UHGV virus genome: UHGV-0111899
Length of the DNA: 23,450 bases
Reading direction: 5' to 3' (one strand)
DNA from: a virus
The translations under genes and the position numbers were made by a program. Below the pieces are notes generated by a model. That model worked only from the letters and a program-made list of their open reading frames with translations, was not told the DNA's origin and ran no database searches. Positions 6,749 through 6,904 of the stretch are shown piece after piece. Within the stretch, counting starts at the first letter, position 1. Each line of letters opens with the position of its first letter.

Positions 6749-6824
6749 TGGTGCTGGTTAACGGACTTGAACCGCTACCCATTCGCTTACAAGGCGACTG
6801 CTCTACCATTGGAGCTAAACCAGC
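6749..6824 (-). tRNA. tRNA-Thr (anticodon UGU)
   Basis: Manual fold of the minus strand: acceptor GCTGGTT/AACCAGC (7 bp), D-stem GCTC/GAGC, anticodon loop CTTGTAA (anticodon TGT), T-arm AGCGG-TTCAAGT-CCGTT, discriminator A, encoded CCA; 76 nt. Confidence 0.8.
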
Positions 6825-6829
6825 ATATT

Positions 6830-6904
6830 TGGCGGGACAGCGTGGACTCGAACCACGATAAGAAGGTTAACAGCCTTCCGTAATGACCTTTATACGACTG
6901 ACCC
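6830..6904 (-). tRNA. tRNA-Asn-like (anticodon GUU), with acceptor and D-stem mismatches; possibly noncanonical or degenerate
   Basis: Manual fold: T-arm CGTGG-TTCGAGT-CCACG, anticodon arm GAAGG-CTGTTAA-CCTTC (anticodon GTT), U8/A14/G18/U33/A37 in place, encoded CCA; one T-T mismatch in the acceptor stem and one in the D-stem. Confidence 0.55.

Follow-up and report, generated by a model that had tools for sequence, protein, structure and literature searches.

Why should a temperate lambdoid phage carry tRNA genes in the leader of its late operon, and what would their products do there? The question is raised by a DNA stretch of 23,450 nucleotides from UHGV virus genome UHGV-0111899, analysed at its full length and referred to below as the window. 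A sequence-only reading had placed in it two tRNA genes, one for Thr(UGU) and one Asn(GUU)-like. The analysis presented here suggests that the role for which this cassette has been selected is probably to provide stand-ins for host tRNAs that are destroyed by Toprim-family abortive-infection nucleases.

Detection and Structure of the tRNA Genes

ARAGORN called exactly two tRNAs in the whole window, Thr(tgt) and Asn(gtt), both on the minus strand, and the Rfam tRNA model agreed with the coordinates and anticodons that had been proposed (Table 1). Scores against RF00005 were 61.5 bits (E 2.5e-11) for tRNA-Thr and 55.3 bits (E 1.2e-09) for tRNA-Asn. Given that the gathering score of this model is 29 bits, a chance match is excluded for both genes. 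The Asn-like element was thus called and scored above threshold, and the predictors supported a tRNA fold for the Thr gene. Both genes have the 7-nt anticodon loop and GGTTCRANTCC T-arm of a bacterial elongator tRNA cloverleaf.

Table 1. Features of the window that bear on the tRNA cassette
Feature	Position	Strand	Basis and remarks
Holin S	6183-6506	-	Pfam PF05106; annotation in relatives
tRNA-Thr(UGU)	6749-6824	-	ARAGORN and Rfam RF00005; 76 nt; CCA encoded
Spacer between tRNA-Asn and tRNA-Thr	6825-6829	-	Read from sequence; 5 nt
tRNA-Asn(GUU)	6830-6904	-	ARAGORN and Rfam RF00005; 75 nt; CCA encoded
Phage 21/Sf6-type tR', hairpin and U-run	6905-6952	-	Sf6 annotation; alignment; -17.4 kcal/mol, z = -5.2
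HNH endonuclease gene, HNH_3 and AP2 domains	6959-7471	-	Pfam; PHROG 99
First terminator-like hairpin, Q-proximal leader (AAGCCCAC...GUGGGCUUUUUU)	7588-7618 (hairpin at 7598-7618)	-	Scan; -12.5 kcal/mol, z = -3.5
Late promoter PR', TTGACA-N18-CATAAT	7659-7688	-	Promoter scan, 11/12 matches
Q-family late antiterminator	7666-8184	-	Pfam PF06530, E 1.8e-25
gam, RecBCD inhibitor	17469-17885	+	Pfam PF06064, E 3.5e-64

The identity set of Escherichia coli ThrRS comprises G1:C72, C2:G71, G35, and U36, and that of AsnRS comprises G34, U35, U36, and G73. Inspection of the sequences revealed G1:C72, C2:G71, and the UGU anticodon in the window tRNA-Thr, and the GUU anticodon and discriminator G73 in the window tRNA-Asn. 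The products are predicted to be functional elongator tRNAs that keep their ThrRS and AsnRS identity.

The mismatches noticed earlier in the acceptor and D stems of the Asn-like gene are real (U4·U69 and U13·U22, respectively) and are accompanied by C9; its anticodon stem is GAAGG/CCUUC, and its identity elements, T-loop, and CCA are all intact. The Thr gene had been described as folding canonically, which is not fully the case: a G27·A43 mismatch leaves an anticodon stem of 4 bp, which also contains U28:A42 and C31:G39, and position 14 is C where A is usual. Given that G27·A43 and U28:A42 are features published for nuclease resistance (see below), the Thr gene is not simply canonical. A14 is almost universal in tRNAs, as the partner of U8. 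The C14 of tRNA-Thr is kept across the lambdoid lineage, with T in 2/20 variants; N4 and D6 have A. The possibility that either gene is the tRNA fragment of an attP integration site was rejected, since both are complete and lie 15 kb from int.

Relatives and Distribution of the Cassette

The cassette is the already-known phage 21/Sf6-type Asn/Thr tRNA pair. Both genes are 100% identical to their counterparts in phage 21 and Sf6 (0 differences each), and a single difference in 166 nt is observed when the flanks are included. The Sf6 record itself labels the two tRNAs "similar to phage 21," and a 5.5-kb stretch of Sf6 around the cassette contains no tRNA beyond this pair. Annotated copies of the pair are found in phage 21 (AJ237660-type), Sf6 (NC_005344), BTP1, Kapi1, mEp506, and the E2348/69 prophage. 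An Asn/Thr tandem downstream of Q has been described in SfI, with one or both tRNA genes at the SfI-like position in Sf6, ST64T, PS3, and phage 21 (PMC3636060), and the same tRNA placement is given for P22-like phages in a paper on phage L (PMC8022706). The cassette is common: the 156-bp unit is present in 347-369 of 5,426 complete E. coli genomes (~6%), where it is annotated as tRNA-Thr and tRNA-Asn, and it occurs in many Shigella and Salmonella phages, the identical Asn sequence being kept in phages of Escherichia, Shigella, and Salmonella.

The window shares with phage 21, Sf6, and SfI the gene order, the 5-nt spacer, the upstream tR' hairpin, and the downstream lambda-type S holin region. 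It differs from phage 21 and Sf6 in that their cassette lies ~50 nt after PR', whereas in the window an HNH gene with its own leader and terminator is placed between PR' and tR'; the E2348/69 prophage has an HNH gene at the same location. In HK629, tR' and the downstream flank are common with the window, and an unrelated, unannotated sequence of ~190 bp that contains no tRNA lies between them. Given this replacement between common flanks, the cassette is a discrete insert of ~160 bp immediately after the late terminator tR'.

The sequence-only reading had likened the locus to Stx-type lambdoid phages, a comparison that misses the true relatives, phage 21 and Sf6, in which the identical genes sit. 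The tRNA cluster of phage 933W, ileZ-argN-argO, which lies between Q and stx, occupies the same slot, downstream of the late promoter and terminator and upstream of the lysis genes; the tRNA species of such Stx-phage clusters differ from the Asn/Thr pair of the window. In the Stx2-converting phages 1717, F349, and WGPS6, the match to the cassette query is confined to its first 30 nt, at 96.7% identity (6881-6910 of the window, minus strand), a segment in which the end of tR' is followed by ~24 nt from the start of tRNA-Asn. This match may be a remnant, or a recombination joint at which the Stx-phage tRNA cluster took the place of the cassette. A further occupant of the slot is the "tRNA-Leu(TAA)" annotated beside tRNA-Asn in phage L (MW013503, 1287-1358) and also in ST64T and PS3. 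It is related to the Thr gene and has the acceptor stem of the latter, but its anticodon arm is rebuilt, with a loop of only 4 nt; it received no ARAGORN call, scored 42 bits in Rfam with the loop deleted, and is probably not a decoder.

Context in the Late-operon Leader

The order of features on the minus strand is Q, PR', hairpin, HNH gene, tR', tRNA-Asn, tRNA-Thr, and holin S, the last being the first protein gene downstream of the tRNAs. This order bears out the proposed placement of the tRNAs, after Q and before the lysis genes within the leader region of the late operon. PR' overlaps the end of Q, has a direct repeat (TTAGCCA, twice) within its spacer, and is identical by alignment to the Sf6 promoter annotated PR'. 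The tR' element aligns with those of phage 21 and Sf6 and lies directly upstream of tRNA-Asn, its hairpin and U-run ending 5 nt short of that gene. The terminated leader RNA annotated in phage 21, 50 nt long, has as its last position the base preceding tRNA-Asn, and expression of tRNAs placed just past tR' should therefore need Q-mediated read-through. For the interval from the HNH gene to tRNA-Asn, the promoter scan found no minus-strand promoter from which the tRNAs might be transcribed separately.

The cassette does not directly follow a PR'-qut-tR' unit at the end of Q, as ~700 bp separate tR' from PR' and comprise a second leader, a terminator, and the HNH gene. This insert (6953-7658, minus strand) extends from the -10 hexamer of PR' to the 21-type leader, and holds the HNH_3 and AP2 domain gene along with a Q21-like initial transcribed region and a terminator of its own. 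At both of its ends lies the motif TA(A/T)GCTGC, from which it follows that the HNH gene is flanked by a partial duplication of the late leader. This organisation was also found in HK629 and the E2348/69 prophage and is not present in phage 21 or Sf6. The insert has the appearance of a homing-endonuclease element that entered the late leader.

tRNA-Thr and the P2 OLD Nuclease

P2 OLD, the Toprim/ATPase effector of the classic P2-lambda interference, is switched on by the inhibition of RecBCD by lambda Gam (Govande et al., NAR 2025, PMC12445682). Its primary lethal target is tRNA-ThrU, the single host tRNA-Thr(UGU), and it cleaves the anticodon stem on each strand, at a paired CNG motif formed by positions 28-30 and 40-42 (PMC12445682). 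In the same study, phage Thr(UGU) tRNAs raised survival by at least 1000-fold, and the tRNA-Thr of phage 21 ("tRNA-Thr21") was protective too. Two changes were required together for resistance to OLD, alteration of the CNG motif and shortening of the anticodon stem; tRNA-Thr21 has C28U/G42A and the shorter stem, and the UGU anticodon was needed for protection by a related rescue tRNA, tRNA-Thr6 (PMC12445682).

By comparison with the GenBank record of phage 21, the window tRNA-Thr has the sequence of tRNA-Thr21. It has UCG/CGA at the CNG site and the G27·A43 mismatch, where host thrU has CUG/CAG and 5 pairs, and so combines the UGU anticodon (with A37) with loss of the CNG motif from each strand (U28:A42) and a 4-bp stem. 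Divergence from thrU is concentrated in the anticodon stem, in which 2/10 positions are identical compared with 23/32 in the other stems (p = 0.008). For the identical phage 21 sequence, what the Thr gene does has been established experimentally, with the difference that tRNA-Thr21 was expressed from a constitutive plasmid promoter and the window gene stands in its natural, Q-dependent context. Pfam searches identified Gam, Bet, and Exo in the window. Given that lambda Gam activates P2 OLD, the phage carries the trigger of the nuclease that its tRNA-Thr resists. The suggestion that the tRNAs counter tRNA-targeting host defences, one of two roles put forward from the sequence, is favoured by these OLD-resistance features and by the protection afforded by the identical tRNA-Thr21. 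A phage-level test of a plating benefit of 21-type phages on P2 lysogens was not found in the literature, nor was anything found there on phage 21/P2 interference or the Asn21 tRNA beyond PMC12445682.

tRNA-Asn and the PARIS Effector AriB

Host tRNA-Asn(GUU) was among the tRNAs compared with tRNA-Thr(UGU) for cleavage by P2 OLD, which hits tRNA-Thr(UGU) first and other host tRNAs as well; tRNA-Thr was cut fastest and tRNA-Asn more slowly (PMC12445682). A second Toprim tRNase, the PARIS effector AriB, acts on the tRNAs Lys(UUU), Thr(UGU), and Asn(GUU), which it cuts between positions 40 and 41, with tRNA-Asn(GUU) a secondary but biologically relevant target; U39, position 41, and U16 were identified by experiment as AriB determinants on tRNA-Lys (PMC12409363). 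PARIS restricts lambda (PMC9122126).

The sequences at these positions differ between host and phage. Host asnT has CGG/CCG, U39, and U16, and the window tRNA-Asn has AAG/CUU, C39, and A16; the window tRNA-Thr has G39, G41, and A16. At the AriB site (U36-A-A-U39-C40/N41, with the slash marking the cut), the host Thr and Asn tRNAs read UAAUCA and UAAUCC, both with U16, and the window copies read UAAGCG and UAACCU, both with A16. Both window tRNAs have thus lost the AriB site and U16. The pair corresponds to two of the three tRNAs needed in the T5 Lys/Thr/Asn set, which neutralises AriB (PMC11464382, PMC12409363), and the copies are alike in that U39 is lost and position 41 and U16 are changed. 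The T5 set differs in having a resistant tRNA-Lys(UUU), the prime AriB target and one required for rescue; ARAGORN found no such gene in the window, where the Asn/Thr pair stands alone. T5 tRNAs are also expressed early, and the window copies are only 55-60% identical to the T5 genes.

It is proposed from these changes that the Asn copy may substitute for host tRNA-Asn(GUU) as the Thr copy does for its own host tRNA. Divergence in the anticodon stem of the Asn gene does not significantly exceed that in its other stems (p = 0.47), and an Asn allele from a Klebsiella phage has C28:G42, which is a CNG motif. Asn(GUU) is found beside Thr(UGU) in the P1-like phage D6, and in N4, T5, and Mulock the two belong to one tRNA cluster. 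The window Asn gene is only 52-55% identical to those of D6, N4, and T5, and the window Thr gene is 82-88% identical to those of D6 and N4. Such co-occurrence in unrelated phages hints at selection for the combination. The D6 tRNA-Asn (L010, 1425-1578) keeps the full AriB site UAAUCA, and the D6 tRNA-Thr (same segment; N4 was compared, L009, 1337-1586) keeps the CUG/CAG OLD motif and a stem of 5 bp, though with G39. The determinants that were altered thus seem to vary between phage lineages and, if so, differing nuclease sensitivities are predicted.

Alternative Explanations for the Cassette

The mismatches of the Asn-like gene had led to the suggestion that it may be a decaying copy, and by extension the Asn gene, or both genes, could be non-functional relics carried along by recombination. 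The non-Watson-Crick U4·U69 and U13·U22 and the C9 of tRNA-Asn would fit such decay, as would C14 and G27·A43 in tRNA-Thr and the truly defective related occupant of the slot in phage L, with its 4-nt anticodon loop. Evidence against it came from 120 IMG/VR contigs collected for their Asn D-arm, of which 80 carry Asn+Thr; in smaller groups, Gly(UCC), Phe(GAA), or Arg(UCU) is added or takes the place of a gene. Over 14 different Asn sequences, the pairs 6:67, 7:66, and 28:42 switch via double compensatory changes, and the mismatches are kept, with U13·U22 unpaired in 14/14 and 4:69 in 13/14; 90% of cells are paired in the true register, compared with 32-52% in slid registers. The Thr alignment has double changes at 7 pairs and keeps G27·A43 in 18/20 sequences. 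For Asn and Thr alike, 0/500 shuffles matched the observed covariation score, and across both genes slid registers paired only 22-52% of cells. The mismatches are conserved features of working tRNAs. Together, detection and covariation demonstrate that the genes are real and under selection. Given also that tRNA-Asn scores 55.3 bits against a 29-bit threshold, that its identity elements, T-loop, and CCA are intact, that phages of Escherichia, Shigella, and Salmonella retain the same sequence, and that the identical Thr sequence works in vivo (PMC12445682), decay is highly improbable, and the suggestion of a decaying Asn-like copy does not hold.

Functional tRNAs could instead serve as extra decoders for ACA and AAC/AAU, speeding translation of phage genes whose codon usage is not that of the host; compensation for AT-rich cargo genes was the other role put forward from the sequence. 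Host thrU is a single gene, and ACA accounts for 26.7% of Thr codons over the window open reading frames, compared with 15.6% in a 50-kb K-12 sample taken as the host reference. ACA is likewise raised in SfI (17.3% versus 7.1% in the host; PMC3636060), and the phage L capsid gene uses AAC for 24/25 Asn codons (PMC8022706). The excess in the window sits in the early genes, with ACA at 32.7% of Thr codons in the leftward operon and 18.4% in the late genes within the window, and these ACA-rich genes are expressed ahead of the Q-dependent tRNAs. In the E2348/69 prophage, the closest complete prophage, the full late operon (31 genes, 7,037 codons) showed no ACA enrichment (16.2% versus 15.6% of Thr codons, p = 0.75), and ACA was used for 1/21 Thr codons of the putative major capsid gene. 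Asn codons are slightly raised in the same operon (47.7 versus 40.6 per 1000), but the AAC share is no different from that of the K-12 sample (p = 0.30), and no Asn bias was reported for SfI either (PMC3636060). Given that late-operon ACA is at host level and Asn is little biased, codon compensation explains a late-operon cassette poorly. It also leaves the concentration of thrU divergence in the anticodon stem unexplained, and HK629-type phages with the same flanks and lysis genes carry the unrelated ~190-bp filler in place of the tRNAs. Codon compensation is thus rejected for Asn and for the late genes. Only an ACA excess in the early and AT-rich genes remains, and overall codon supplementation is an unlikely account of the cassette. 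A quite different explanation is that the tRNAs are not decoders but have a function mainly in cis: they could be RNase P/RNase E processing sites, parting the leader from the late mRNA, or recombination boundaries. The sharp cassette boundaries common to tRNA-less relatives, the start 5 nt after tR', and the mosaic boundary sequences annotated nearby in Sf6 and CUS-3 are compatible with this, but a role in cis would not conserve anticodons, synthetase identity nucleotides, and compensatory stem changes. Relatives manage without the cassette, and the Thr tRNA works in trans from a plasmid (PMC12445682), such that an action mainly in cis is very improbable.

Proposed Function of the Cassette

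Replacement of nuclease-targeted host tRNAs is the explanation preferred here, and it can be described by the following model. The cassette would be transcribed from PR' within the Q-antiterminated late transcript, and the tRNAs presumably excised by host tRNA-processing enzymes. Were a P2 prophage resident, the phage's own Gam would activate P2 OLD, which would amputate the anticodon arm of host tRNA-Thr(UGU) and cause ribosomes to stall at ACA codons. The phage tRNA-Thr would escape the cut because the paired CNG is lost (U28:A42) and the stem is one pair shorter (G27·A43), as shown by experiment on the identical phage 21 sequence. The Asn copy would likewise replace host tRNA-Asn(GUU), as it has neither the host CNG motif nor U39 and U16.

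Several observations stand against a counter-defence role. In the window, the cassette lies behind tR' as well as a second terminator, where phage 21 has a single one, and 0.75 kb from PR'; given this position, the tRNAs should not appear until Q has acted, whereas Gam is an early protein. Rescue as published, measured against the toxicity of OLD plus Gam, is partial and was obtained with expression from a constitutive plasmid promoter, and according to the authors a complete set of resistant tRNAs would be necessary for lambda (PMC12445682). The phage is without the resistant tRNA-Lys(UUU) that is required for rescue from PARIS, which argues against a role directed at that system. For Asn, the absence of the CNG motif and of U39 might occur in any diverged tRNA, and the early-gene ACA enrichment leaves room for a translational benefit of the tRNAs.

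A more speculative extension, held here as a possibility on the doubtful side, is that the Asn gene encodes a second nuclease-resistant substitute, such that the cassette is a two-part module directed against the Toprim tRNases P2 OLD and PARIS AriB. Low-level read-through of tR' from a constitutive PR' would, according to this proposal, pre-load lysogens or early-infected cells with resistant tRNAs, and the recurrent pairing of the two genes would reflect convergent selection. If correct, such pre-loading would solve the timing problem, and the Asn+Thr pairing in P1-, N4-, T5-like, and lambdoid phages, with unrelated Asn genes, would represent convergent selection by the Toprim nuclease family.

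On the preferred reading, that of replacement tRNAs, the cassette offers a natural case of a temperate phage that carries a substitute for a host tRNA destroyed by a rival prophage, P2. The Thr half of the cassette has been explained by experiment since 2025, and neither the role of Asn nor the timing of late tRNAs relative to an early nuclease alters current understanding.

Other Features of the Window

Directly downstream of the N gene (15329-15730), an AT-rich (35% GC) open reading frame of 293 residues is present at 15727-16608 on the plus strand. It belongs to PHROG 12139, for which the function is not known, and its last 20 residues weakly resemble Nun-like termination factors. The AT-rich open reading frames near N, this one included, gave no Pfam or PADLOC match. 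The 293-residue frame may represent a moron or an exclusion gene. Further along the plus strand, at 17225-17283, a lambda cIII thermoregulator element (RF01804) was identified with an Rfam score of 88.5 bits, a match that confirms both that the leftward early operon is of the lambda type and how the window is oriented.
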